Sequence record: OZ035765.1
Reading direction: 5' to 3' (one strand)
From: Veterinaerplatzvirus T145P1
DNA: 45,062 bases
Under the pieces are notes generated by a model. It made no database searches and was not told the DNA's origin. It saw only the letters and a program-made list of their open reading frames with translations. A program made the translations under genes and the position numbers. Within the stretch, counting starts at the first letter, position 1, and each line of letters opens with the position of its first letter. Shown here one piece after another: positions 9,267-44,781 of the stretch.

Positions 9267-9289
9267 AACCCTCTTAGGAGGGTTTTTTA
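9267..9289 (+). terminator. rho-independent terminator (after major tail gene)
   Basis: AACCCTC-TTAG-GAGGGTT followed by T5. Confidence 0.65.
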
Positions 9290-9294
9290 TTGCA

Positions 9295-9337
9295 TAGCAC
9301 TTTTTGCTAAAGCGGTTATTCAACTTTGCTGTATAGT
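9295..9337 (+). promoter_or_regulatory. conserved promoter/operator module
   Basis: TAGCACTTTTTGCTA, 22 bp, TATAGT, leader TACCTCATCGAAACGA. Confidence 0.5.
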
Positions 9338-9370
9338 TACCTCATCGAAACGAAATGAGAGATTAAAGAA

Positions 9371-13728: not shown

Positions 13729-14484
13729 ATGTTAAGTCCAAAGTTTGAAAATCAGTTGCAAAGCCTTTTCCCTGGTGAGATTGTGACACTAATCCAGGTT
13801 GACGGCACGTCCTTCGGGGGTCTCGTTTATTCGTTCCACAATGAGAACATCTCATACACTCCAGAAGAAATCATGCTGGCTCAAATGAATGGCGAGCCAC
13901 TACCAGAGAAAACCATCACATTTCGTGGTGAAGAGTACGGGCCTAGACCATTTGGAATCTCTGGCATAAATATGACTTCTGACGGAAAGGCCAATAAGGT
14001 TACATTAACGGTATCAAACGTTGACCAGCGTATTAGTGCGTTAATCCGAACATACAACGGACTTGTTAAAGCTAAGGTTACAATCTGGATTACTACGCGC
14101 GATAACATCAATGAGGATGGAAGCATTGCTGACGGGGACTATCGCAGATTCGTTTACTTTATTGAGCGACCGAAGCAGGTTGACTACAAGACCGCATCGT
14201 TTGAGCTAAGCAGCCCGATGGATATGGATGGTATTTATATCCCCGCAAGACTTGTTCAGTCTGTTTGCTATTGGGCTTCTAGGGGTTGGTATCGCAGCGG
14301 TAATGGATGCGACTACGCTGGCAATCGTTATTTTGACAAAGACGACAACCCGGTAAGTGATCCGTCTCTAGATTTCTGCGCCGGAACAGTTAATAGCTGT
14401 AAGATTAGATTTGGAGAGAATAACCAGCTTTCATTTGGTGGATGCGCAGCAGCAAGCCTTCAAGCTAAAGCGAATCAGAGCTAA
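13729..14484 (+). CDS. minor tail protein (lambda L-like)
   Basis: Start moved to ATG 13729 (GGAG upstream); canonical order. Confidence 0.8.
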   Translation: MLSPKFENQLQSLFPGEIVTLIQVDGTSFGGLVYSFHNENISYTPEEIMLAQMNGEPLPEKTITFRGEEYGPRPFGISGINMTSDGKANKVTLTVSNVDQRISALIRTYNGLVKAKVTIWITTRDNINEDGSIADGDYRRFVYFIERPKQVDYKTASFELSSPMDMDGIYIPARLVQSVCYWASRGWYRSGNGCDYAGNRYFDKDDNPVSDPSLDFCAGTVNSCKIRFGENNQLSFGGCAAASLQAKANQS

Positions 14485-14493
14485 GGGGGAACA

Positions 14494-15252
14494 ATGTTAA
14501 CACCAAAAGTTAAACTGGAAATCTTCCAGCACGCAAAGGAAGTTTACCCGCATGAGTGCTGTGGAGTTGTTACGCAGAAGGGTCGCGCTCAGAGGTATCA
14601 CAGAATCACCAATGTCAGCAAGGACCCGGAGAATGAGTTTATCCTTGATTCGAATGAGTATGCAGATGTTCTCTTTGAGTTGGCTCACAATGAATCTATT
14701 GTTTACGTAGTTCACTCTCATACGGGTGATGGCGCAACAACAAGGCCTAGCCCAGCGGATATTTGCAGCTGTAATGAATGCGAGGTTCCTTACGTTATTG
14801 TAAGCATCCCAGAGTTGGACATGAGAATCCTTGAGCCATCAACCATGCCTCTGATTGGTCGACCTTGGGGGCTTGGTAGCTTTGATTGCTGGGAGTTGGT
14901 AATGGCGTTCCACAAGAAATACGGCGTCAAACTGAATGACTACCGAGTTAATTACCCGTGGTGGGAGAAGCGGTACAATGAAAATATCTATGACGACAAC
15001 TGGATTAAGGAAGGATTTGAGTTGGTGAAAACTTCAGATATTACTGTTGGCTCAATGATTATGATGCAGGTCCAGAGTGAAGTAACAAACCACGCCGGAA
15101 TCTACATTGGCAACAACAGATTCATTCACCATCTTTATGGTAAAATGAGTTCCATTGATATCTATTCCGATTACTGGCGAGAGCGCACAGTGAGAATCGT
15201 TCGCCATAAGGATTTACCAGAGGATGTAATCTATGACCCAGAAACTGATTGA
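14494..15252 (+). CDS. tail assembly protein (lambda K-like, MPN/JAMM plus NlpC/P60)
   Basis: JAMM-like HSHTGDG...SPAD motif and C-terminal Cys/His NlpC-like residues. Confidence 0.85.
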   Translation: MLTPKVKLEIFQHAKEVYPHECCGVVTQKGRAQRYHRITNVSKDPENEFILDSNEYADVLFELAHNESIVYVVHSHTGDGATTRPSPADICSCNECEVPYVIVSIPELDMRILEPSTMPLIGRPWGLGSFDCWELVMAFHKKYGVKLNDYRVNYPWWEKRYNENIYDDNWIKEGFELVKTSDITVGSMIMMQVQSEVTNHAGIYIGNNRFIHHLYGKMSSIDIYSDYWRERTVRIVRHKDLPEDVIYDPETD

Positions 15253-15805
15253 TATTAAGTTAGGTCTGTCTCTAGGCCGCAAGTTTGGAAAGATTCACCA
15301 GATGGCAGTGAATAGCGTGCCGGAGGCAATGAGAGCACTTTGCTCACAGATTCCTGCATTCAAGGAGTTCATGAATAGCCACGTTGGTCAAAATACAAGG
15401 TACGCCGTGTTCGTTGATGGTAAAAATGTGAACGAGCATCGAATTTCTGATTTTAGTGCCGTTCAGGAGATACGAATCTTGCCAATTCCGCAGGGTCGCA
15501 AGTCAGGCGGCTTGTTTCAGACAATTTTAGGTGCAGCCCTTATCGTTGTTGGTATCTACACTGGCCAGGCTTATCTTGTTGGTGCAGGTATCTCTCTTGC
15601 TGCTGGCGGTGTTGCTCAGTTGCTTTCACCTCAAGCTACTGGGTTGAAAGACCAAAGTAACCAGACAAGTAACAGGGCATCTTACGCATTCGGCTCGGCT
15701 GTAAACACGGTAGCCGCTGGCTACCCGGTTTGCCTACCGTATGGCTATCGAACGGTTGGAGGTTCGGTGTTTAGCGCCGGCTCGTATAGTGAAGACATTG
15801 CTTAA
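15233..15805 (+). CDS. tail assembly protein (lambda I-like)
   Basis: 190 aa, hydrophobic Gly-rich segment; overlaps K-like gene. Confidence 0.75.
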   Translation: MTQKLIDIKLGLSLGRKFGKIHQMAVNSVPEAMRALCSQIPAFKEFMNSHVGQNTRYAVFVDGKNVNEHRISDFSAVQEIRILPIPQGRKSGGLFQTILGAALIVVGIYTGQAYLVGAGISLAAGGVAQLLSPQATGLKDQSNQTSNRASYAFGSAVNTVAAGYPVCLPYGYRTVGGSVFSAGSYSEDIA

Positions 15806-20275: not shown

Positions 20276-20511
20276 TCCTTACTGCCGTGATCTGCAACAG
20301 AACCGCCGTAACCGCCGCCAGATTTGCTTTCAATGCCAGCGTAGCGAATATCAACCTCACCAGCCGGAACAACTACACCGCCTTTCCACTTAGCTACGCA
20401 CACGCCGTTTGCTTGTGTTGCACACCACCCATCAGGTCGAGGACCAGAAGAACAACCTACTGTCATGATTACTGCCGCCGAGATGATTGCTGATTTGATG
20501 AAGTTAGTCAT
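20266..20511 (-). CDS. cor: Cor-like outer-membrane lipoprotein (superinfection exclusion, putative)
   Basis: Start moved to ATG at 20511 (AAGGAA RBS); signal peptide plus lipobox-like TVGC; located beside the J gene as cor is in FhuA-using phages. Confidence 0.5.
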
Positions 20512-20550
20512 TTTGTATTCCTTATTAAGTTGTTTCGTTTTGATGTAGTA

Positions 20551-20594
20551 ATAATACAACCGTCAGTGCGGAATGTCTTTAGCTATTCGTGCTA
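20551..20594 (-). promoter_or_regulatory. conserved promoter/operator module (cor operon)
   Basis: Minus strand TAGCACGAATAGCTA, 23 bp, TATTAT, leader TACTACATCAAAACGA. Confidence 0.45.
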
Positions 20595-20652
20595 TTGCAT
20601 ACACGTAACCGATGTAACTCGATGTATACAATCTCATCCGCGGAAAATGATA

Positions 20653-20678
20653 TACGCACTGTTACGCAAATTTACGCA
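20653..20678. repeat. three TACGCA motifs at exact 10-bp phasing
   Basis: TACGCA at 20653, 20663 and 20673. Confidence 0.6.
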
Positions 20679-20694
20679 TTGGTTACATTAAAAT

Positions 20695-20751
20695 ATCTAT
20701 ATATATCAACCTTTTACTCTTATTATTATTATATATATATTACTGTGTATA
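20695..20751. repeat. AT-rich block, copy 1 (divergent control region)
   Basis: ATCTATATATATCAACCTTTTACT-(ATT)n-ATATATAT-TACTGTGTATA; near-identical to 39509-39574. Confidence 0.7.
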
Positions 20752-20852
20752 TCATGTAACTACTTCTATAGAGTGTTCCGGTTATAATTTTAATATCATG
20801 TGGATTTATACAGTATTGCGCTGCAGCTATACCAATGCACCCTCAGCAATAA

Positions 20853-21251
20853 ATGATATACACGATATACACGATGGTTACATTGAGCTATAGCTGGGCC
20901 GAGATGCCAAAAAACGTAACTAGTGCCAATGCCTACACGGAATTACAAGGATTCACGCGTAAACTTAAATCAACGATTGGCAAAACCAATTGGACTGGTT
21001 ACGGTGCCGAATATATAGTTAACTCATCGAAAGCAAACAACCAGAGAGATACAGAAATGACCTACTACATTATCAAAGAGAAAAACAACGCACTGTTCGG
21101 TGATTGCTACTTTGGCGGCCCTGCTGGATATACCACAGATAAGAAAGAGGCTGACAGATTCGAGACTAAAGAAGAAGCCCGAGATGTGCTGACTGGTTAC
21201 TTCACTGAAGAAGATTTGAAGTCTGTTAAAGTGGTTAAGGTTAAGGAATAA
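20853..21251 (+). CDS. hypothetical protein (start uncertain)
   Basis: First ATGs lie inside the GATATACAC tandem repeat; alternative starts at about 20874 or further downstream. Confidence 0.35.
   Translation: MIYTIYTMVTLSYSWAEMPKNVTSANAYTELQGFTRKLKSTIGKTNWTGYGAEYIVNSSKANNQRDTEMTYYIIKEKNNALFGDCYFGGPAGYTTDKKEADRFETKEEARDVLTGYFTEEDLKSVKVVKVKE
20855..20872. repeat. tandem GATATACAC x2 (related copy at 39480-39502)
   Basis: GATATACACGATATACAC; related CGATATATACACACGATATACAA in the second control region. Confidence 0.6.
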
Positions 21252-22415: not shown

Positions 22416-22880
22416 ATGAACAAAGATTGCTGGCAGACTCCTTTAGACTTATTCAAACCGATAGATGATAAATACAAATTCAAGGTTGACGTGTGCGCAA
22501 GCCAAGAAAACGCGCTTTGTAAATATTACTGGACTGTAGATGATGACTGCTTGCAACAGGATTGGGGAGATGATGGTGGTTTCGTTTGGTGCAATCCACC
22601 ATATAGCAATCCATTACCATTTGTTGAAAAGTGCCAGCAATACGGCTATGCGGTCATGCTATTGAATCAGGATACGTCAACAAAATGGGCTAAGATAGTC
22701 TTTGAAAAAGCATCAAAGGTTATACTTTTATCAGACAGGGTTAGGTTTATAAATCCAGTAACAATGGAGGTTGGTAAGTCAAATCCTAAATGCCAGATGA
22801 TTGTAGTTTTCGACAGGCGTAGCAATTCTGGAGTTGATATACGTTGGTGTTCAATAAAAGAAATTCATAAGCAAATTTAA
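22416..22880 (+). CDS. dam: DNA N6-adenine methyltransferase (phage Dam family)
   Basis: Start moved to ATG 22416; catalytic NPPY motif (WCNPPYSN); about 154 aa. Confidence 0.8.
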   Translation: MNKDCWQTPLDLFKPIDDKYKFKVDVCASQENALCKYYWTVDDDCLQQDWGDDGGFVWCNPPYSNPLPFVEKCQQYGYAVMLLNQDTSTKWAKIVFEKASKVILLSDRVRFINPVTMEVGKSNPKCQMIVVFDRRSNSGVDIRWCSIKEIHKQI

Positions 22881-22881
22881 A

Positions 22882-22925
22882 TAGCATGAATTGCTAAAGA
22901 CAAAACTAAAGGGTGTGGGTATGAT
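22882..22925 (+). promoter_or_regulatory. conserved promoter/operator module (erf)
   Basis: TAGCATGAATTGCTA followed by a TGGGTA/TACCCA hairpin; -10 weak. Confidence 0.4.
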
Positions 22926-22954
22926 TACCCAATCAACAACGAACGAGGTTAAAG

Positions 22955-26684: not shown

Positions 26685-26705
26685 TGTGTAGAGTCTCCAT
26701 TTGTA

Positions 26706-26745
26706 AAATAGCACGAATTGCTAAAGTGGATTGTAGCATCTTTGA
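26706..26745 (-). promoter_or_regulatory. palindromic operator copy at tail fibre 5' end
   Basis: TAGCACGAATTGCTA lies between a TACAAT-like box and the fibre start; operator rather than promoter geometry. Confidence 0.35.
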
Positions 26746-30329: not shown

Positions 30330-30745
30330 AGATTACAGATAAAGAAGATTACATTGAGTTTTACCAGGGTCCGGTTAAGTCATGCCCTAAAGAGGATGAC
30401 GAACAAATCTTTTGCTCTGATTGGGTTAAGTATAACTACCCAGATATGGTATTTTTCCATTGCGTGAATGAGGGAAAGAAAACCATTGGTCAAGCAAGAA
30501 AAGACCAGGCTAAGGGGCTTCTAAAAGGCGTATCAGACTGTATGTTTCTTATTCCTGAATCACTTCGAGGTAAGTATCCTTTCGGAGCTATAGAGCTAAA
30601 GAGGGCTGGCAAAACTCAAGCAAGTCCAGTCAGCGAAGAACAGAAAGCATTCCTGAAAAGTGTAATGGAATCAGGCGGTTTCTCGGCAGTCGCCTACGGA
30701 CGTGAGGGTTTTCTTGCAGCATTCAAAGAAATGATTTCAAAATAG
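30326..30745 (+). CDS. VRR-NUC-like nuclease (putative)
   Basis: 139 aa; D...E-L-K type motif (DCMFLIP...AIELKR); ATGA overlap with helicase. Confidence 0.5.
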   Translation: MKITDKEDYIEFYQGPVKSCPKEDDEQIFCSDWVKYNYPDMVFFHCVNEGKKTIGQARKDQAKGLLKGVSDCMFLIPESLRGKYPFGAIELKRAGKTQASPVSEEQKAFLKSVMESGGFSAVAYGREGFLAAFKEMISK

Positions 30746-30785
30746 CACGAATTGCTAAAGACGATTTTAAAAGATGGGGTATAGT
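30743..30785 (+). promoter_or_regulatory. conserved promoter/operator module
   Basis: TAGCACGAATTGCTA, 22 bp, TATAGT, leader TACTCCATCGAAACGA. Confidence 0.5.
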
Positions 30786-30821
30786 TACTCCATCGAAACG
30801 AAACACAAAGAGAGTAATAAA

Positions 30822-31398: not shown

Positions 31399-31583
31399 TT
31401 GGCTTCTGCGTAAAAACAAATGGGCGATTTACACTATTTGATGATTACGAAATCAACTTTGATTCAGGCGGCGCAATAACAGTAAAAGGGGACGATGAAT
31501 TACATTGGTTCCTTAGTTATCAAGGTGATGGCTACTACGGATGCATTGATGCAAACGCAAAAGAAGTTAGTTTCTTAGTCTAA
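31395..31583 (+). CDS. hypothetical protein
   Basis: Start moved to ATG 31395 (GGAGG RBS). Confidence 0.4.
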   Translation: MIGFCVKTNGRFTLFDDYEINFDSGGAITVKGDDELHWFLSYQGDGYYGCIDANAKEVSFLV

Positions 31584-31626
31584 TAGCACTTTTTGTTAAA
31601 ACTAAAATCCACGGATGGATTATATT
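31584..31626 (+). promoter_or_regulatory. conserved promoter/operator module
   Basis: TAGCACTTTTTGTTA, 22 bp, TATATT; ATCCACGGATGGAT hairpin in spacer. Confidence 0.45.
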
Positions 31627-31657
31627 AAGCACATCAACAACACAGGGGGTTAAAAAA

Positions 31658-32562: not shown

Positions 32563-33693
32563 ATGGCAACCGCAAAAATCACCAACGAACAATTGCGCGA
32601 AGAGTTAGCAAATGGCATGACCAACAAGGCAATCGCAGAGAAGTACGGAATGAACATTCGCAACGTTGAATTGCGTCGCAGTAAATTAGCTAAACAAGGC
32701 GAAGGGCATGGTCGCGATGTAAGCAACTTAATCCCTCAGGGCTATGCAGTTAAAGGCGTCTCCAGCTTAATTGGTGCTGATGGCGAGATTAAGCAACAGT
32801 GGGTTAAATCAGATATCGACAAGGAGAAGCAAGAAGAGATGATGCTTCAGGCAATTCAGGCCCTAACTGATGAGTTGCCGCGTGAGAAAGCTAAAGCTTT
32901 AAGGGTTGGTTTATGGGAAGATACTTTAAGCCTTTACCCCGTGTTCGACCTCCACATTGGAGCAATGGCTCATCATGCTGAGTGTGGTGAGAACTATAGT
33001 ACTGAAATCGCTGAGAGAGTTCTTAATGATTACTTTGATTACGCGGTTGCAAAGGCCCCCAACTCCAAGAAAGCTGTATTGCTGATTGGGGGTGACTTCC
33101 TTCACTCTGACGGAATGGAAGCGGTAACACCAACCAGTCGTCATGTTCTTGATCAAGATAGCCGTTATCACAAACTTGTTTACGTAGCAGTGCGATCGAC
33201 ACGTCGAGCAATTAGCCGCATGCTTGATAAGCACGCCGAGGTTGAGGTTCAGATTATTCCAGGTAACCACGATCTCTCAGGTATGATTTGGCTTCGTGCT
33301 GCAATGGCAGCTTTCTATATGGATGAGCCTCGAGTTAATGTTGATGCGTCCCCCGCTGCGCTTCACGTAACGCAATTTGGGAAGACGCTGCTTGGTTACT
33401 GCCATGGGCACGAACTCAAAAAGCCTGATACCCGACTATCAGCACTGGCTCGTGACCATCGCAAAGCATTTGGTGAATCAGAGTATGTTTACACCCATTC
33501 AGGCCACTATCACCATCAAACTATTACGGAAGGAAATCTGGGTATTGATGAATCACACGGCCAGCTTGGAGCGAAAGATGCGTACAGTGCTAACGGAGGT
33601 TATCGCTCTTACCGACAGGCTTCGGTGATAATTTATAGTCCTGAGTTTGGTGAGATTGGACGATTTACTTGCCGCCCGGAAATGTTTAGTTAA
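32563..33693 (+). CDS. calcineurin-like metallophosphoesterase with N-terminal HTH
   Basis: Motifs D-L-H, GGDFLHSDG, GNHD, GHxH (SGHYHH); N-terminal MTNKAIAEKYGMNIRNV HTH-like segment. Confidence 0.6.
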   Translation: MATAKITNEQLREELANGMTNKAIAEKYGMNIRNVELRRSKLAKQGEGHGRDVSNLIPQGYAVKGVSSLIGADGEIKQQWVKSDIDKEKQEEMMLQAIQALTDELPREKAKALRVGLWEDTLSLYPVFDLHIGAMAHHAECGENYSTEIAERVLNDYFDYAVAKAPNSKKAVLLIGGDFLHSDGMEAVTPTSRHVLDQDSRYHKLVYVAVRSTRRAISRMLDKHAEVEVQIIPGNHDLSGMIWLRAAMAAFYMDEPRVNVDASPAALHVTQFGKTLLGYCHGHELKKPDTRLSALARDHRKAFGESEYVYTHSGHYHHQTITEGNLGIDESHGQLGAKDAYSANGGYRSYRQASVIIYSPEFGEIGRFTCRPEMFS

Positions 33694-33737
33694 TAGCACT
33701 TTTTGCCTAACGCATGCCGTAGAAATGAGGCATAATT
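33694..33737 (+). promoter_or_regulatory. conserved promoter/operator module
   Basis: TAGCACTTTTTGCCTA, CATAAT, leader TACCACATCGAAACGAG. Confidence 0.45.
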
Positions 33738-33777
33738 ACCACATCGAAACGAGATGAACTAAACGAGGAAACACAAA

Positions 33778-35594: not shown

Positions 35595-37178
35595 TCACCC
35601 CAGCAATCTCGGATTAATGTAAACTTTATCACCAATCAGGCACGTATAGTTTTTCTCATCAAGCATTGGCAGTAAGTGATCTTTAATCTTCGTCATCACT
35701 CCAGCCTGAGCCTCGAACGGCTTAACCTTTCGCGCCGCTTCATACAATGAGCGAATGCCAACAACACCCTTACCGTTTTTACCCTGCTTGATCAGGATAT
35801 CAATCAGCTTATTCATCTCGGCATTGTCGCCAGCGTGACCAGCCGCGTTGGCAGATGACAAATAAGTCTTGCTAAGCTCCTGGAACATGATTACAGCTTC
35901 TTGCATGGTATCAAGCTCAATCTCTCTGGATTTCTGTGGACTCCCACCGCTAGGGTTGAACCAGTTGCGCACTGTGTGAAGAACAGCAGCAATCCTGATA
36001 GCCTGCTTATCGAATTTACCCAGCGCGCCGCGCAACATTGTGTGGGAATACTTACCGCCGTCCGCAAGGTGCGGCTCCATTTCCTGACGTGCCCGGTTTA
36101 GATATTTCATCGCTGAGTTGCTAACCGTCAACTTTACTTCTTGCTCATTCATGATTTCGTGAACCAGGCGGAAGTAGTTAGCCTTAAGCTCACCATCAAT
36201 TGGCTCGTAAGTTGAGTTGCCATTCTCATCGACGAATACACGCTCGCCAAGGAATGATTTTTCACGCACAAGTAGAAAACGTTCCGACACACCAATACCA
36301 CGAGCACCAGCATTCATGATTGCGTTTATTGTCTCATCTTGCGCAATTACAGAGATGCATCCCATAGCGACGAAGCTCATGTTGTTTTCTGCGTTCGCAC
36401 GCGCAATGGACACGTTACCAGCATCCCACGCCTTGAGTACGAGCTCGCTGTTCGTTTTCTTTGAGCCATCACCATAGGTCATACCTAGCAGAGAGTTCAC
36501 GCTCGTTGCTTCATCAGAGATAACCGCGAAGTTGCCCTGGCGGTTGTTTATTCGCGCAAGACCTTCAGGTGTCGTATCTGATACTGGAAATACGATATCG
36601 CACATCTTTTCCAGCTTCTCCTCTAAATCCTCTTTCTCCTCAAAGAGAGACGCCATCTCTGATGGTGACTTTTCCTGCTTCATCTCTTTGGATAATGCAG
36701 ACAGCTTTGCCATAATCTTTTTACGCTCACGCTTTCGCACTTCATTAAGCCGCTCAGTCTCAGCAATCATTGGCGCAATAGAAAGCGAGTTAATTGCTGA
36801 TTTACCTGTGGATGGTGGCTGACTGGTTACTACGTATAGAGAGGTCGGTTGCTGGGTTCCGTGATACTCTACTGTAAAACGTCCCAGCATGGCGGCAGAA
36901 ATACACCCCAGAAAGTGCATATAAGCTGAAGACTCTGGAAATTGAACAGAACGGGCAATATTGGCTGACAGCTTACCAACAACATCAATGTCATTACCGA
37001 GTGAGATTACGGGATACTTGTCATTAGCCGCATCAATCTCAACTGGCGCTTTCCAGAATGATTGAGACTGACGATATCCATTGGCATTAATAGCGACGCG
37101 CAGGGGTGGGAGGTTGTCTGCGGCAGCAATTGCCATAACCTGTTCAACAGATAGCTTATCTTCGTTGAAATCAAACAT
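35595..37178 (-). CDS. P-loop NTPase of unknown function
   Basis: Walker A-like SQPPSTGKS and Walker B-like FAVISDEA separated by a charged coiled-coil insertion; own promoter module upstream. Confidence 0.6.
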   Translation of the reverse strand: MFDFNEDKLSVEQVMAIAAADNLPPLRVAINANGYRQSQSFWKAPVEIDAANDKYPVISLGNDIDVVGKLSANIARSVQFPESSAYMHFLGCISAAMLGRFTVEYHGTQQPTSLYVVTSQPPSTGKSAINSLSIAPMIAETERLNEVRKRERKKIMAKLSALSKEMKQEKSPSEMASLFEEKEDLEEKLEKMCDIVFPVSDTTPEGLARINNRQGNFAVISDEATSVNSLLGMTYGDGSKKTNSELVLKAWDAGNVSIARANAENNMSFVAMGCISVIAQDETINAIMNAGARGIGVSERFLLVREKSFLGERVFVDENGNSTYEPIDGELKANYFRLVHEIMNEQEVKLTVSNSAMKYLNRARQEMEPHLADGGKYSHTMLRGALGKFDKQAIRIAAVLHTVRNWFNPSGGSPQKSREIELDTMQEAVIMFQELSKTYLSSANAAGHAGDNAEMNKLIDILIKQGKNGKGVVGIRSLYEAARKVKPFEAQAGVMTKIKDHLLPMLDEKNYTCLIGDKVYINPRLLG

Positions 37179-37995: not shown

Positions 37996-38038
37996 ACTAT
38001 ACATTGAAAGCCCCGAAGGGCTTTAGCAATTAGTGCTG
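37996..38038 (-). promoter_or_regulatory. conserved promoter/operator module
   Basis: Minus strand TAGCACTAATTGCTA, 22 bp, TATAGT, leader TATCCAATCGAAACGAAACG. Confidence 0.5.
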
Positions 38039-38187
38039 TTTCGTGCTTTCTCTATCGCCTTGAGCATGATTTCGTGACTCTCAAGCAAATCCTCATTGAA
38101 CCAATCTCCGCAAGGCCAGCCCTTTCCGCTATACGCACTTATGACTTCCAGATCGAAATAATTTATCTCAGATGGCAGGAGCATCAT
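38023..38187 (-). CDS. hypothetical protein (54 aa)
   Basis: Translationally coupled; stop codon lies inside the operator palindrome. Confidence 0.3.
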   Translation of the reverse strand: MMLLPSEINYFDLEVISAYSGKGWPCGDWFNEDLLESHEIMLKAIEKARNSTNC

Positions 38188-39175: not shown

Positions 39176-39219
39176 AGTATACGCATAGTTAGCCACACTG
39201 TCTTTAGCAAAAAGTGCTA
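39176..39219 (-). promoter_or_regulatory. conserved promoter/operator module (minus-strand small-gene operon)
   Basis: Minus strand TAGCACTTTTTGCTA, 23 bp, TATACT; followed by about 200 nt leader. Confidence 0.45.
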
Positions 39220-39232
39220 TTCGTTAGATTTA

Positions 39233-39321
39233 TGTATTGTTGCAGATATTGCAATGATTCACTTGATTATTGCACATACAGCAATATTGCTTCCGATGCA
39301 ATGATGTTTTTGATTGTTGCG
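39233..39321. repeat. iteron-like array of ATTG(N)TGCA / ATTGCAAT motifs
   Basis: At least six related motifs spaced 14-18 bp apart. Confidence 0.5.
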
Positions 39322-39508
39322 AAAAGTGAAATTAAGTGGTGAGTGAGTGAATGAAAGATGGATGGACTACCATACAAGTTGATTTTTACCAATCTATGGG
39401 AGCCTCACGGATATACGCGTATCCTCCGTATACTCAGTGTCGTCACAAAAGTTAGTGACCACTAACCTACGTTTTTACGCGATATATACACACGATATAC
39501 AATATAAT

Positions 39509-39574
39509 ATCTATATATATCAACCTTTTACTTTATTATTATTATTATTATTATATATATGTATACTGTGTATA
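39509..39574. repeat. AT-rich block, copy 2 with longer (ATT)n tract
   Basis: Same core as 20695-20751 with two to three extra ATT units. Confidence 0.7.
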
Positions 39575-39614
39575 CCGGTAATTGGTGAGATTATTGATAT
39601 GTTCCGCGCAGATA

Positions 39615-39632
39615 TTCTGACACCTGTCAGAA
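39615..39632. promoter_or_regulatory. perfect 8-bp-arm inverted repeat TTCTGACA-CC-TGTCAGAA
   Basis: Directly readable palindrome downstream of the AT-rich block and upstream of the 39850 gene. Confidence 0.45.
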
Positions 39633-39849
39633 ATGGATGGCATTGTAGGAATAAAAGGCACATATATAGGGAATGGCTTCAAAAATCTGTACACATCGGA
39701 TACGGCACATTTACAACCAGCAATGGAGGGGCCTCTGGAGGCAAGAAGCGTATCCATGATAAAATAGACGAAAATATACATTGACCGACACGTAAATAGA
39801 TGGCAATATAGCAGTCACTGAAACGAAGTAAAACAAACGAGGTATCAAC

Positions 39850-40398
39850 ATGCAGAAAGTAACACTAGGTGAAGTTATCCGTGAGATGGTGCGCAACGCG
39901 ATGGTGTCCGAGAGTGGTGAGTTTAAAGTTCCGGTTAGCCAGATATTCAAACTGGTTCGAGGCAAGGAATACCCTGAAATGGTGTATGACGAAGATACTA
40001 GTGAGATCCTCAACCTGGCAGATAGGGCGATGCCGGAACTAAAGAACTCATACATCTATAACACAGTGTCGAGAATGACAGAGCTTCGCGATGCTAATAA
40101 GCGAGCGAGATATAAGTTCATCTGGATTGATGATGACGGAGAGCAAACAAGGCCCGGTAGCTTCGACGGTGATGGCGCTGATAAATACCTGGTCATATAC
40201 ATTGAGAACGGCGCGCACTGGACTGGGAGTCGCGAAAAGAAAAAGCAGGAAGCGGAGAAAGAGGCGGCTATCATTGAAAAGTTCAAGTCTAGACTGCTCA
40301 AGCTGTCACCAAGTGTTGCTGGCTTGGAAGGTGAAGAACTTAAGGGCGCTGTTACAATGATTAATGCTTATCAGGAAATGATTAAGGAGACTAAGTAG
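39850..40398 (+). CDS. hypothetical protein
   Basis: 182 aa; first plus-strand gene after the divergent control region. Confidence 0.5.
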   Translation: MQKVTLGEVIREMVRNAMVSESGEFKVPVSQIFKLVRGKEYPEMVYDEDTSEILNLADRAMPELKNSYIYNTVSRMTELRDANKRARYKFIWIDDDGEQTRPGSFDGDGADKYLVIYIENGAHWTGSREKKKQEAEKEAAIIEKFKSRLLKLSPSVAGLEGEELKGAVTMINAYQEMIKETK

Positions 40399-40489
40399 TA
40401 GACTACCATACCACTTGCGGTACAGCGAGGAAGAGGTTGAGGTGGCCATTGAGTTCTATCGGAAAGCTAAATCACTACTGAATGGTAAA

Positions 40490-40533
40490 TAGCACTTTTT
40501 GCCTAACGCGGTAATGCCATGGATGGCATAATA
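40490..40533 (+). promoter_or_regulatory. conserved promoter/operator module
   Basis: TAGCACTTTTTGCCTA, CATAAT, leader GCCTCATCGAAACGAG. Confidence 0.45.
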
Positions 40534-40570
40534 GCCTCATCGAAACGAGATACGTAAATGAGGATTTAAA

Positions 40571-40789
40571 ATGAGCAAGACAATCACGCTGCAATGCCTT
40601 AAGACAAATAACCCAGAGTTCTTAAAAGGTCACAAATATGTGGCAACCCTGGTGGATGGGAAAACATGGGCGGTTAAGGGTGGATTCCAGGATTACAAAT
40701 TCCCACTTGAGCACATACCTGGCGGAAACCTTGGTTTTGTTAGTGACTGCCGCTCAGTTAAGTTTGTTTTTGAGGTTGTAATGAAATAG
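40571..40789 (+). CDS. hypothetical protein
   Basis: 72 aa; promoter module at 40490-40533. Confidence 0.45.
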   Translation: MSKTITLQCLKTNNPEFLKGHKYVATLVDGKTWAVKGGFQDYKFPLEHIPGGNLGFVSDCRSVKFVFEVVMK

Positions 40790-40829
40790 CAATAATTGCT
40801 AAATCTTCCGCAAGGCCATTTGATATAGT
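40787..40829 (+). promoter_or_regulatory. conserved promoter/operator module
   Basis: TAGCAATAATTGCTA, 22 bp, TATAGT. Confidence 0.45.
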
Positions 40830-41992: not shown

Positions 41993-42322
41993 ATGAGTAA
42001 ATACGATCGCAAGATTATTGGCATTGATGGCACAGTAACAACAGTAGATGTTTATCGTGTTCTTGATGCGTTTGGCGTATCTGACCCAGCCACTCAGCAT
42101 GCGGTAAAGAAGATGCTTTGCACTGGCCTGCGTGGACACAAGGATTACTTAACTGACCTTAATGACTCCATTGAGTCACTACAGAAGGCTAAAGAGATTT
42201 ACTGGCAGAAGATGATTCATGAATCCGATAAAATCACTGATTCAATTTTAAATCCACCAAAAGAAGCGAGATTTAGTACTGCTAATGGTTCAGAATTCAC
42301 TTTCGGAAAGGTTAGAGTCTAA
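41993..42322 (+). CDS. hypothetical protein
   Basis: 109 aa. Confidence 0.45.
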   Translation: MSKYDRKIIGIDGTVTTVDVYRVLDAFGVSDPATQHAVKKMLCTGLRGHKDYLTDLNDSIESLQKAKEIYWQKMIHESDKITDSILNPPKEARFSTANGSEFTFGKVRV

Positions 42323-42323
42323 A

Positions 42324-42366
42324 TAGCACGAATTGCTAAACCCGCTCCTGCGGGTTTTGTTATAGT
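42324..42366 (+). promoter_or_regulatory. conserved promoter/operator module
   Basis: TAGCACGAATTGCTA, 22-bp spacer that is itself a terminator-like hairpin, TATAGT. Confidence 0.5.
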
Positions 42367-42394
42367 TAGTTCACACCAATCGAGAGGTAAGAAA

Positions 42395-42702: not shown

Positions 42703-42836
42703 TTTACATCCACACGTACTACACTGGTAAGTTTAATAGCGTCAAACATGTCCGTGTTCACGATAACTACGAGAGCGCAAAAGCTCAATGGTTGGTTCTT
42801 GGTGGTGACATTAATTCATACAGAGTTGCTGAGTAG
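42699..42836 (+). CDS. hypothetical protein (45 aa)
   Basis: ATGA-coupled; stop TAG is the first triplet of the next module. Confidence 0.3.
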   Translation: MIYIHTYYTGKFNSVKHVRVHDNYESAKAQWLVLGGDINSYRVAE

Positions 42837-42876
42837 CACTAATTGCTAAAACAGTATTGGGGTAATTTGTTATAGT
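42834..42876 (+). promoter_or_regulatory. conserved promoter/operator module
   Basis: TAGCACTAATTGCTA, 22 bp, TATAGT, leader TACCCCATCGAAACGAGAGAGG. Confidence 0.5.
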
Positions 42877-42906
42877 TACCCCATCGAAACGAGAGAGGAA
42901 TAAGAA

Positions 42907-43573: not shown

Positions 43574-43703
43574 ATATGTTATCGCATGTGAACGACTGGT
43601 CTTTGATATGAAGACTTTTCACTGGTTCATAATTAAGGATTTAGTTAAGCCTTATAAGAAAGGTGTTATGCCAGAGCAGTTTGTTAAGTCGTTCTACAAA
43701 TAG
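43560..43703 (+). CDS. hypothetical protein (47 aa)
   Basis: Stop TAG embedded in module 43701-43743. Confidence 0.25.
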   Translation: MSFTEYVIACERLVFDMKTFHWFIIKDLVKPYKKGVMPEQFVKSFYK

Positions 43704-43743
43704 CACGAATTGATAAACCAGATCGCCACGGATGGCATATAAT
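43701..43743 (+). promoter_or_regulatory. conserved promoter/operator module
   Basis: TAGCACGAATTGATA, 22 bp, TATAAT. Confidence 0.5.
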
Positions 43744-43776
43744 CACCATATCAATACAACGAGAGAGATAAAGCAA

Positions 43777-44704: not shown

Positions 44705-44781
44705 GCTCGAGTGGCGAAAGTGGATATCGCAAGAGACTTCTAATCTCTAGATTGCTGGTTCGAATCCAGCCTCGAGCGCCA
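44705..44781 (+). tRNA. tRNA-Arg (anticodon UCU)
   Basis: Hand-folded cloverleaf: 7-bp acceptor GCTCGAG/CTCGAGC, D-arm GCGA/TCGC with GG loop, anticodon stem AGAGA/TCTCT with loop CTTCTAA, T-arm GCTGG-TTCGAAT-CCAGC, discriminator G, encoded CCA. Confidence 0.85.

Follow-up and report, generated by a model that had tools for sequence, protein, structure and literature searches.

Paired iteron-flanked, easily melted elements at the divergent operon junctions of a T1-like coliphage: two candidate replication origins

The DNA analyzed here (the window: all 45,062 nucleotides of record OZ035765.1) is that of Veterinaerplatzvirus T145P1 (Drexlerviridae, Braunvirinae), a siphovirus of Escherichia coli that is Rtp-like and 45 kb in length. 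Three T145P1 assemblies match it at 98–100% identity, and Rtp, CEB_EC3a, SU57 and other relatives do so at 84–96%. T1 itself counts among the original T phages, and the phages that resemble it are notorious as contaminants in the laboratory and in fermentation. Our subject is a non-coding element that occurs twice in this genome. Read from the left, the gene order is terminase, head, tail, a leftward cor-like lipoprotein gene, region 1 and recE-erf-ssb, followed by genes for the tail fiber, the primase and a helix-turn-helix (HTH) protein (all leftward), and an SF2 helicase. The lysis genes come next, and then an early operon that runs leftward and encodes, among others, a DUF3987 helicase; after this operon come region 2 and a set of small early genes transcribed rightward. 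Regions 1 and 2 are the long non-coding junctions (~20512–21056 and ~39210–39849) at which leftward and rightward operons diverge. A first-pass annotation, made from the letters alone, had placed a duplicated AT-rich block in two divergent intergenic regions and had read it as two copies of one cis-acting control element, and both points are borne out by the analysis below, for which relatives were drawn from whole phage records, while protein-based IMG/VR searches yielded 6–7 loci each.

Each region holds one AT-rich block of ~55 bp, as follows:

20689–20744, no strand assigned: AT-rich block of copy 1, with the shared 27-mer, a (TA)4 run, an IHF-consensus core (TATCAACCTTTTA, 20704–20716) and (ATT)3(AT)5 at 20722–20740
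39503–39558, no strand assigned: AT-rich block of copy 2, with the 27-mer at 39506–39532, an IHF-consensus core at 39518–39530 and (TTA)7.3 at 39533–39554

The shared 27-mer, AATATCTATATATATCAACCTTTTACT, is found exactly twice in the window (20692–20718 and 39506–39532) and gave 0 matches in shuffled sequence, even at 3 mismatches, confirming that the two loci carry the same element. When duplex stability was calculated by nearest-neighbor computation in 60-bp windows, the copy 2 block was the least stable duplex of the genome (z 5.6) and the copy 1 block the second least stable (z 5.1). The two blocks are likewise the two least stable 60-bp duplexes genome-wide in 9/9 Drexlerviridae genomes from four lineages (the window, EC3a, ETEP102, Rtp, Msk, A110b, T1, TLS and the Klebsiella Webervirus mtp21), with z-scores of 4.5–5.9, the third-ranked window in these nine genomes reaching ≤3.8. 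As the block sequences of T1, TLS and Webervirus resemble those of the window only loosely, the conserved property is the instability itself, together with two (TA) runs of at least 4 units, ~32–40 bp apart. An (ATT)n or (AAT)n run is present in every block outside T1, whose blocks are without such runs; in Braunvirinae, TLS and Webervirus, runs of this kind of at least 3 units are essentially confined to the blocks, and the trinucleotide runs of at least 3 units in each Braunvirinae genome number exactly two, both inside the blocks.

Two of the four matches to the IHF core consensus WATCAANNNNTTR in the window lie within the blocks (20704 and 39518, on the same strand), which makes the IHF footprinting proposed in the first-pass annotation an apt experiment. 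An IHF site would combine this core with an A/T-rich 5' tract. Both of these perfect cores are preceded by ATATCTATATA, and the core is kept in copy 1 of all Braunvirinae tested, with 1–2 mismatches in several versions of copy 2 and no match in the T1 and TLS blocks. Matches to a 25-mer of the block are restricted to Drexlerviridae-type contigs. We note that the sole bacterial-genome match, NZ_VSMK01000220.1, is a 46.7-kb contig of a "Nitratidesulfovibrio liaohensis" assembly that is 72–89% identical to the phage over the 8 kb compared, and is probably a T1-like phage contig rather than bacterial chromosome.

Around the blocks, TACGCA, GATATACAC and GGTTACAT prove to be variants of one 7-bp word, KWTACRY (others include TTACGC, GTTACAT and TATACAC), which is arranged in arrays of ~10-bp spacing that face inward on the block. 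The sites in and around the two copies are:

20603–20628, minus strand: three leftward iterons, ACGTAAC at 20603, ATGTAAC at 20612 and ATGTATA at 20622 (reverse complements GTTACGT, GTTACAT and TATACAT)
20651–20688, plus strand: four direct iterons facing the AT block, TATACGC at 20651, GTTACGC at 20661, TTTACGC at 20671 and GTTACAT at 20682, at 10/10/11-bp spacing
20745–20760, minus strand: two iterons facing back at the block, GTGTATA at 20745 (reverse complement TATACAC) and ATGTAAC at 20754 (reverse complement GTTACAT)
20767–20788, plus strand: conserved TATAGAGTGTTCCGG followed by TTATAAT, from sequence comparison
20857–20883, plus strand: second direct iteron triple, TATACAC at 20857, TATACAC at 20866 and GTTACAT at 20877, non-coding
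20914–20963, minus strand: two single inverted iterons, ACGTAAC at 20914–20920 and GCGTAAA at 20957–20963
39409–39424, no strand assigned: back-to-back iteron pair forming the near-palindrome GGATATACGCGTATCC, TATACGC at 39412 and GCGTATC at 39417
39474–39502, plus strand: direct iterons of copy 2, TTTACGC at 39474, TATACAC at 39485 and a degenerate TATACAA at 39496, at 11-bp spacing
39559–39574, minus strand: two inverted iterons of copy 2, ATGTATA at 39559 and GTGTATA at 39568
39689–39716, plus strand: degenerate phased triple, GTACACA, GATACGG and TTTACAA at 10/11 bp, read off the sequence itself and matching KWTACRY in part

The three TACGCA hexamers at 20653, 20663 and 20673, which had been noted earlier for their 10-bp intervals, belong to the four-iteron array at 20651–20688 and form the only such phased triple of the window (0.03 expected; for a phased iteron triple, 0 matches are expected in shuffles); the hexamers are helically phased, as described earlier, and resemble binding sites. 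KWTACRY matches the genome at 121 positions, 23 of them in the two 650-bp regions (3.5 expected, p = 8e-13), and the two densest 300-bp windows of the genome are copy 1 (12 sites) and copy 2 (6 sites), a density pattern that is repeated in EC3a, ETEP102, Msk, A110b and Rtp and, more weakly, in T1. An unbiased 6-mer enrichment recovers the same words. The iteron layout of copy 1 is fixed in all Braunvirinae, with a spacing of 9–11 bp around the block; the leftward iterons at 20603–20628, which are 9–10 bp apart, are invariant in relatives, as is the triple at 20857–20883, with free variation in the 40 bp ahead of it. The core plan recurs in copy 2 (two to three rightward iterons, the block, and two leftward iterons), where the triple at 39689–39716 is the positional counterpart of that at 20857–20883.

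Two further short motifs accompany the arrays. TATAG(A/C)GTGT(TCC) is found 20–30 bp to the right of the AT block in copy 1 of the window (20767–20781), copy 2 of TLS (~270–290 in TLS) and copy 2 of T1 (~300–315 in T1), and is conserved across subfamilies. The other, TCCGCGGAAA (20641–20650 in the window), stands ahead of the direct iterons of every Braunvirinae copy 1 and of copy 2 in Rtp, and may be a further binding site. All CCGCGG sites of the Rtp genome fall within the two regions (6/6 strand counts).

Conservation was scored in 200-bp windows averaged over six relatives, with unaligned positions scored zero. The most conserved window of the genome is 20601–20800, at 96.6% compared with a genome mean of 62.7%, which is above every coding window; the DUF3987 helicase gene and the HTH gene also rank among the top conserved windows. 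Copy 1 is ~100% identical even in ETEP102, which aligns across just 39% of the genome, and copy 2 retains the architecture in a fast-evolving sequence (~58%). The element is strongly selected, family-wide. One could nevertheless argue that it is functionless low-complexity sequence produced by chance and replication slippage, given that AT-rich simple repeats can arise and vary by slippage and that (ATT)n does vary among relatives; however, a 27-mer shared exactly, the retention of the element at both positions in four lineages, the rank of copy 1 as the most conserved 200 bp, and the restriction of (ATT) runs of at least 3 units to the blocks leave this explanation with hardly any probability at all.

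The same data bear on the idea that the near-identity is maintained because the sequence serves as a crossover point between modules, that is, as a recombination or mosaic-boundary sequence with no binding function. The near-perfect match in the otherwise poorly aligning ETEP102 would be expected in this case, the accessory genes in the flanks do vary (in EC3a and 12397V, copy 1 has one more gene on its left), and the window has the look of a mosaic of T145P1 isolates. What such a boundary would leave unexplained are the phased and oriented arrays, the extreme instability, and the replacement of the repeat word by lineage within a retained architecture (described below), and copy 2, which shares the architecture, is poorly conserved; we therefore consider this highly improbable.

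The repeat word is specific to the lineage, being TATACAC/GTTACAT in the window, TTAACAC/GTTACAC in T1, TGAACAC in TLS and ATCTTAC in Webervirus, where ATCTTAC/GTAAGAT occurs at least a dozen times around the blocks. The phased triple changes accordingly, from GATATACAC GATATACAC GATGGTTACAT in the window to three copies of GATTAACAC in T1 and to GTGAACAC GTGAACAGC GATGGAACA in TLS. A word that is replaced by lineage while the architecture is kept points to a cis site that co-evolves with a phage-encoded binder and not with a host factor, and this implies that the protein reading the iterons would be encoded by the phage itself. Two genes are candidates for it:

35595–37178, minus strand: gene of the DUF3987 protein (527 aa), an MCM-family AAA+ helicase with a C-terminal winged helix (PMC4889955)
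27754–28233, minus strand: gene of a Cro-like HTH protein (159 aa), between the primase and SF2 helicase genes

Region 2 is the start of the leftward operon to which the DUF3987 gene belongs, and the product of this gene is a candidate initiator-helicase that would read the iterons; the 159-aa HTH protein is an alternative and equally open candidate. Across the lineages, the recognition helix of the HTH protein differs among Braunvirinae, T1 and TLS, and the winged helix of the helicase varies with lineage less clearly. The fold matches of the HTH protein are Cro-like only and have weak E-values, so we discarded the idea that it has a known initiator fold.

The first-pass annotation had further suggested that the variable (ATT)n tract is slippage-prone DNA that could tune the strength of a promoter. 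The variability is real: (ATT)n runs from 2 to 6 units among relatives, and is 3 or 4 among T145P1 isolates. Twenty distinct copies showed (ATT)n(AT)m values of (2,5), (3,5), (4,1), (4,4), (5,3), (5,4), (6,2) and (6,4), and yet 18/20 of them keep 27–30 bp between the conserved core and the nearest inverted iteron after it; in this spacing, copy 1 (n = 3) and copy 2 (n = 6) differ by just 2 bp. At a simple-sequence contingency (phase-variation) locus, the repeat number would differ among close isolates and thereby alter a promoter spacer or a reading frame; in four T145P1-type genomes, copy 1 reads either (ATT)3(AT)5 or (ATT)4(AT)4, which differ by 1 bp in net length, and copy 2 shows no variation. 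A tract that varies in its repeat number at constant overall spacing points to a spacer or unwinding tract under constraint, more than to a tuning device.

Nor do the promoters themselves lend support to the idea of the block as a tunable promoter: the flanking operons have their own consensus promoters 100–290 bp from the block, and the promoter-like hexamers within it (6 found, compared to 3.4 ± 2.1 in shuffles) are within the shuffle range. The promoters of the two regions, the first gene to the right of region 1 and a repeat zone of region 2 are:

20551–20600, minus strand: leftward consensus promoter of region 1, with the 21-nt repeat (reverse complement AATAGCACGAATAGCTAAAGAC), AAGACA, a 17-nt spacer and TATTAT
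20991–21056, plus strand: rightward promoter of region 1, with TGGACT, a 17-nt spacer and TATAGT (20991–21019), the consensus leader CATCGAAAGCAAAC and a ribosome-binding site
21057–21251, plus strand: 64-aa gene (phrog_5247), with a conserved ribosome-binding site and ATG at 21057
39176–39221, minus strand: leftward consensus promoter of region 2, with the 21-nt repeat, AAGACA, a 17-nt spacer and TATACT
39775–39849, plus strand: probable rightward promoter of region 2, with TTGACC at 39781–39786, CAATAT/TATAGC at ~39804–39812 and a consensus-like leader
39225–39345, no strand assigned: TTGCA, TGCAATGAT and GATTGTTGC repeats and GTGAGTGAGTGAATG, in region 2 only (region 1 is without these)

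The promoter at 20551–20600 drives the cor-like lipoprotein gene (ATG at 20511), and that at 39775–39849, which our promoter scan did not report, was assigned by its likeness to the consensus leader and precedes the gene of a DUF7174 protein (ATG at 39850). In region 1, the tandem GATATACAC that had been noted at the start of the downstream open reading frame is genuine (2.3 copies, 20855–20875), but the ATG at 20853 that it was taken to overlap is not the start of a gene. The frame 20853–21251 is a mechanical 132-aa open reading frame, whose upstream 68 codons are non-coding regulatory DNA: the ATGs at 20853 and 20874 are lost in EC3a, Msk, A110b and Rtp and in four IMG/VR relatives, and 12397V carries a 1-nt indel within the supposed coding stretch upstream of 21057, so that a coding sequence under the GATATACAC repeat can be set aside. 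With the start at 21057 and not at 20853, region 1 comprises ~545 bp of non-coding DNA (20512–21056). The over-extended frame has counterparts in rtp46 of Rtp and Ec3a_41 of EC3a.

These promoters lead to the strongest competing explanation, in which a regulator made by the phage, such as the 159-aa Cro-like HTH protein, would use the iterons as operators to turn the divergent early operons on or off, and in which the AT block and its bend site would serve as an upstream enhancer or would themselves form a promoter (TTTACT, a 17-nt spacer and TATATT). Such an arrangement would suit the position of both elements between divergent operons, that of copy 1 directly upstream of recE-erf-ssb in all four lineages whatever its other flank, and the iterons that touch or enter the rightward promoters. 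In region 1, these are the iteron at 20957–20963, which lies ~28 bp ahead of the -35 hexamer of the rightward promoter (20991), and GGTTACGG, which is in the spacer of that promoter; in region 2, they are TATACAT at 39775 and ACGTAAA at 39790, both overlapping the probable rightward promoter. It would also suit a Cro-like fold whose recognition helix differs where the iterons differ. Both blocks do hold promoter-like pairs with 9/12 matches, TTTACT/17-nt spacer/TATATT (20713–20741) and TTTACT/16-nt spacer/TATTAT (39527–39554); however, such matches are no commoner than in shuffled sequence, as noted above, and TTTACT is retained neither in copy 2 of Rtp, EC3a and Msk nor in T1. The distances between arrays and promoters are, moreover, not fixed, with a 25-bp insertion in EC3a and 12397V and a leftward gap of ~30 bp in region 1 compared to ~190 bp in region 2. 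Extreme duplex instability that is selected across lineages with diverged blocks would be unexpected of an operator region, and inward-facing arrays around an AT core are the layout of an origin. We thus regard operators as a serious but rather doubtful account of the element, and one that is compatible with an origin, because initiators often autoregulate. In the Webervirus mtp21 (13964–15426), where the replication genes are rearranged, copy 1 lies between primase and recE, 165 bp past the end of the primase gene, so that in this lineage the element travels with recE inside the replication module.

Taking these observations together, an origin-type assembly site accounts for the anatomy as a whole better than a tunable promoter does, and the reading we tentatively prefer, while giving it slightly less than an even chance, is that the two regions are two replication origins of T1-like phages, or one origin and an auxiliary site. 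We read them as origins because their anatomy matches that of the origins of staphylococcal pathogenicity islands (SaPIs), which comprise 6–12 short iterons of 5–7 bp around an AT-rich center, with at least 2 opposed iterons per side, and which a self-loading Rep helicase of the SF3 or SF6 (MCM-like) type recognizes through its winged helix before melting the center (PMC9371898). The iteron clusters of both copies, the unstable AT center with at least 2 opposed iterons per side in each, and a phage-encoded AAA+ helicase with a C-terminal winged helix are the equivalents in the T1-like genome. There are also differences, in that a SaPI origin lies immediately downstream of rep, whereas the phage element is not beside the helicase gene, occurs twice per genome, has extra iteron triples that reach 100–300 bp toward the promoters, and contains an internal IHF-consensus site in its block; the phage is a virulent Gram-negative siphovirus, and its helicase is only a candidate binder, with a separate HTH protein equally open.

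Other replicons offer partial parallels. In the satellite phage P4, ori and crr are separated cis sites with the same octamer repeat at roughly helical spacing, bound by the α primase-helicase, a single fused SF3 protein that reads the repeats through the C-terminal winged-helix domain of the replicative helicase. The T1-like element resembles this system in having two separated cis sites with a common short repeat, and the T1-like primase is of the same zinc-ribbon type (PF08273), but the phage primase and MCM-like helicase are encoded by separate genes and the repeat sequence differs. If one of the two copies is an auxiliary site, the pair would follow the pattern of P4 ori and crr. As in pSC101, R6K γ and the λ origin, phased sites for a putative initiator lie beside an easily melted AT tract with an IHF-consensus core, and some of them overlap a promoter, as is also the case for plasmid initiators that regulate themselves; the sites of these plasmids and of λ, however, are 17–22 bp long, direct and on one side of the AT tract, and depend on DnaA or on loading of the host helicase, while those of the phage are 7 bp long, opposed and on both sides, with no strict DnaA box. 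We did consider a DnaA-dependent origin, as the ATATACACA words and (ATT)n resemble DnaA boxes and DnaA-trios/TTATT, respectively, but rejected it on account of the lineage-specific motif and because the strict box TTWTNCACA is found in neither region in 6 genomes, in which only one-mismatch forms like ATATACACA occur. A structured or small RNA in copy 1 was likewise rejected, with folding z-scores of 0.28 and 1.86 and no Rfam match even at E ≤ 1.

On the origin reading, a phage-encoded protein would occupy the 7-bp KWTACRY iterons, one helical turn apart, on both sides of a ~55-bp AT-rich block that would serve as the unwinding element and that has, in this lineage, a putative IHF-type bend site. 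Occupancy of the arrays, aided by bending and by the divergent flanking transcription, would cause the (TA)n/(ATT)n tract to melt, upon which the MCM-like DUF3987 helicase and a DnaG-type primase would load, before host polymerase takes over. Copy 1 (20603–20760), always upstream of recE-erf-ssb, would be the main origin, and copy 2 (39409–39574), beside the probable pac region, a second origin or an auxiliary site; the outlying iterons at or within the rightward promoters would probably couple occupancy by the initiator to early transcription. What the analysis shows directly is the anatomy with its statistics, the duplex instability, the conservation, the lineage-specific repeat word and the folds of the proteins; protein binding, melting and replication initiation at the elements are what we infer. 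A more specific version, which we consider unlikely, takes the (ATT/AAT)n run between the two (TA)n runs to be a sequence-specific single-strand landing pad, analogous to the DnaA-trio, for an AAA+ initiator-helicase at two MCM-type origins, with copy 2 physically coupling initiation to the adjacent pac inside the terminal redundancy. The near-confinement of such runs to the blocks in Braunvirinae, TLS and Webervirus would allow it; the T1 blocks, which have no (ATT) or (AAT) runs, count against it.

Several observations weigh against an origin. Two origin-like copies per genome are unusual, and neither abuts the helicase gene: copy 2, at the head of its leftward operon, is still ~2.2 kb upstream of the gene, and copy 1 is at a distance of ~14 kb. 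Some iterons are far from the block, at or inside rightward promoters, which suits a transcription factor equally well, and copy 1, being always just upstream of the recE operon, could be the control region of that operon. The IHF consensus is perfect in Braunvirinae copies only, and is absent from the T1 and TLS blocks. In addition, the winged-helix residues of the helicase show no obvious co-variation with the iterons, with TLS resembling the window despite its different motif. Finally, copy 2 is ~120–210 bp from the packaging end as placed by the T1 and TLS records.

This last point raises the question of whether the element is itself the pac recognition site, with the small terminase subunit binding the phased repeats and, together with bending by IHF, setting the first cut. 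In P1 pac and in λ cosB an IHF site is flanked by repeats, a likeness that we count in favor of such a role. The T1 record begins with its annotated 2.8-kb terminal repeat and the TLS record with its assigned pac (AGATTT; PMC11447400), and position 1 of each aligns to ~39280–39300, to the left of copy 2. This zone, however, falls within the tract at 39225–39345 that has its own repeats, absent from region 1, and thus pac is more likely to be the neighbor of copy 2 than the element itself; 39225–39345 is probably the pac neighborhood, separate from the iteron/AT element. The better conserved copy 1, moreover, lies mid-genome, where no packaging end is reported, and packaging of the T1 type is described as starting from a single pac site, whereas the element is neither unique nor coincident with the start of the packaging series. 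We therefore judge a pac function very unlikely, although copy 2 could still contribute to packaging.

In the literature searched, we found no description of the paired element and nothing usable by way of a mapped T1 origin, pac sequence or transcription-start data, and, according to the genome papers on the T1-like phages SU57 and TLS, neither an origin nor iterons could be identified (PMC7718038, PMC11447400). The present analysis gives T1-like phages two precise, family-wide candidate origin sites and two candidate binders, making the origin question directly testable. If the origin reading is correct, the element would be a new case of an iteron/AT-rich origin at which an MCM-like helicase acts, the combination of a self-loading MCM-like helicase with short opposed iterons would extend from staphylococcal islands to a large family of virulent enterobacterial phages, and the most conserved 200 bp of the genome would be a small and essential cis-acting target through which T1-like phages could be detected, engineered or blocked.

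The leftward promoters of both regions belong to a promoter module, composed of AAATAGCACGAATTGCTAAAG, ~22 nt, TATAGTTAC and the leader CATCGAAACGA, of which the genome holds about 15 copies:

2110–2177, 9288–9355, 22875–22927, 26702–26735, 30736–30803 and 31581–31644: promoter module copies
33691–33754, 40489–40550, 40780–40803, 42317–42369, 42827–42894 and 43694–43746: further promoter module copies
20574–20597, 38018–38041 and 39199–39221, minus strand: promoter module copies

The repeat of this module is the known 21-nt repeat of TLS and T1, described for TLS (PMC11447400). This Drexlerviridae repeat, aaATAGCACnnnTTGnTAAAA, resembles the paired element in being non-coding and family-wide, with one copy to the left of each region (20576–20597 and 39199–39221), but its ~12–14 dispersed copies each stand directly upstream of a gene and are invariant across the family, whereas the blocks and iterons are at two loci and the iterons are lineage-specific. 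The repeat holds a perfect palindrome, TAGCA-N5-TGCTA, which by our own count is centered near -41.5 from the likely transcription start, a position that would be typical of a promoter dependent on a dimeric activator.

Some further observations concern the records themselves. The best-matching T145P1 assembly changes along the window, being OZ035786 for region 1 and OZ035767 for region 2 (100% identity in each case), and T145P1 genome lengths differ (44.8–45.5 kb), which suggests recombinant or indel variants among T145P1 isolates. Three records with names of other hosts, MG065688 (Campylobacter phage A110b), PP134917 (Pseudomonas phage PsgS01F) and OR786094 (Streptococcus phage MBBL140), are T1/Rtp-like genomes of the coliphage type, with 87–93% nucleotide identity or 73% helicase identity to the window, and host mislabeling or contamination is likely to lie behind their names. 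Close to the right end of the window, a tRNA-Arg gene (anticodon TCT) is located at 44705–44781.

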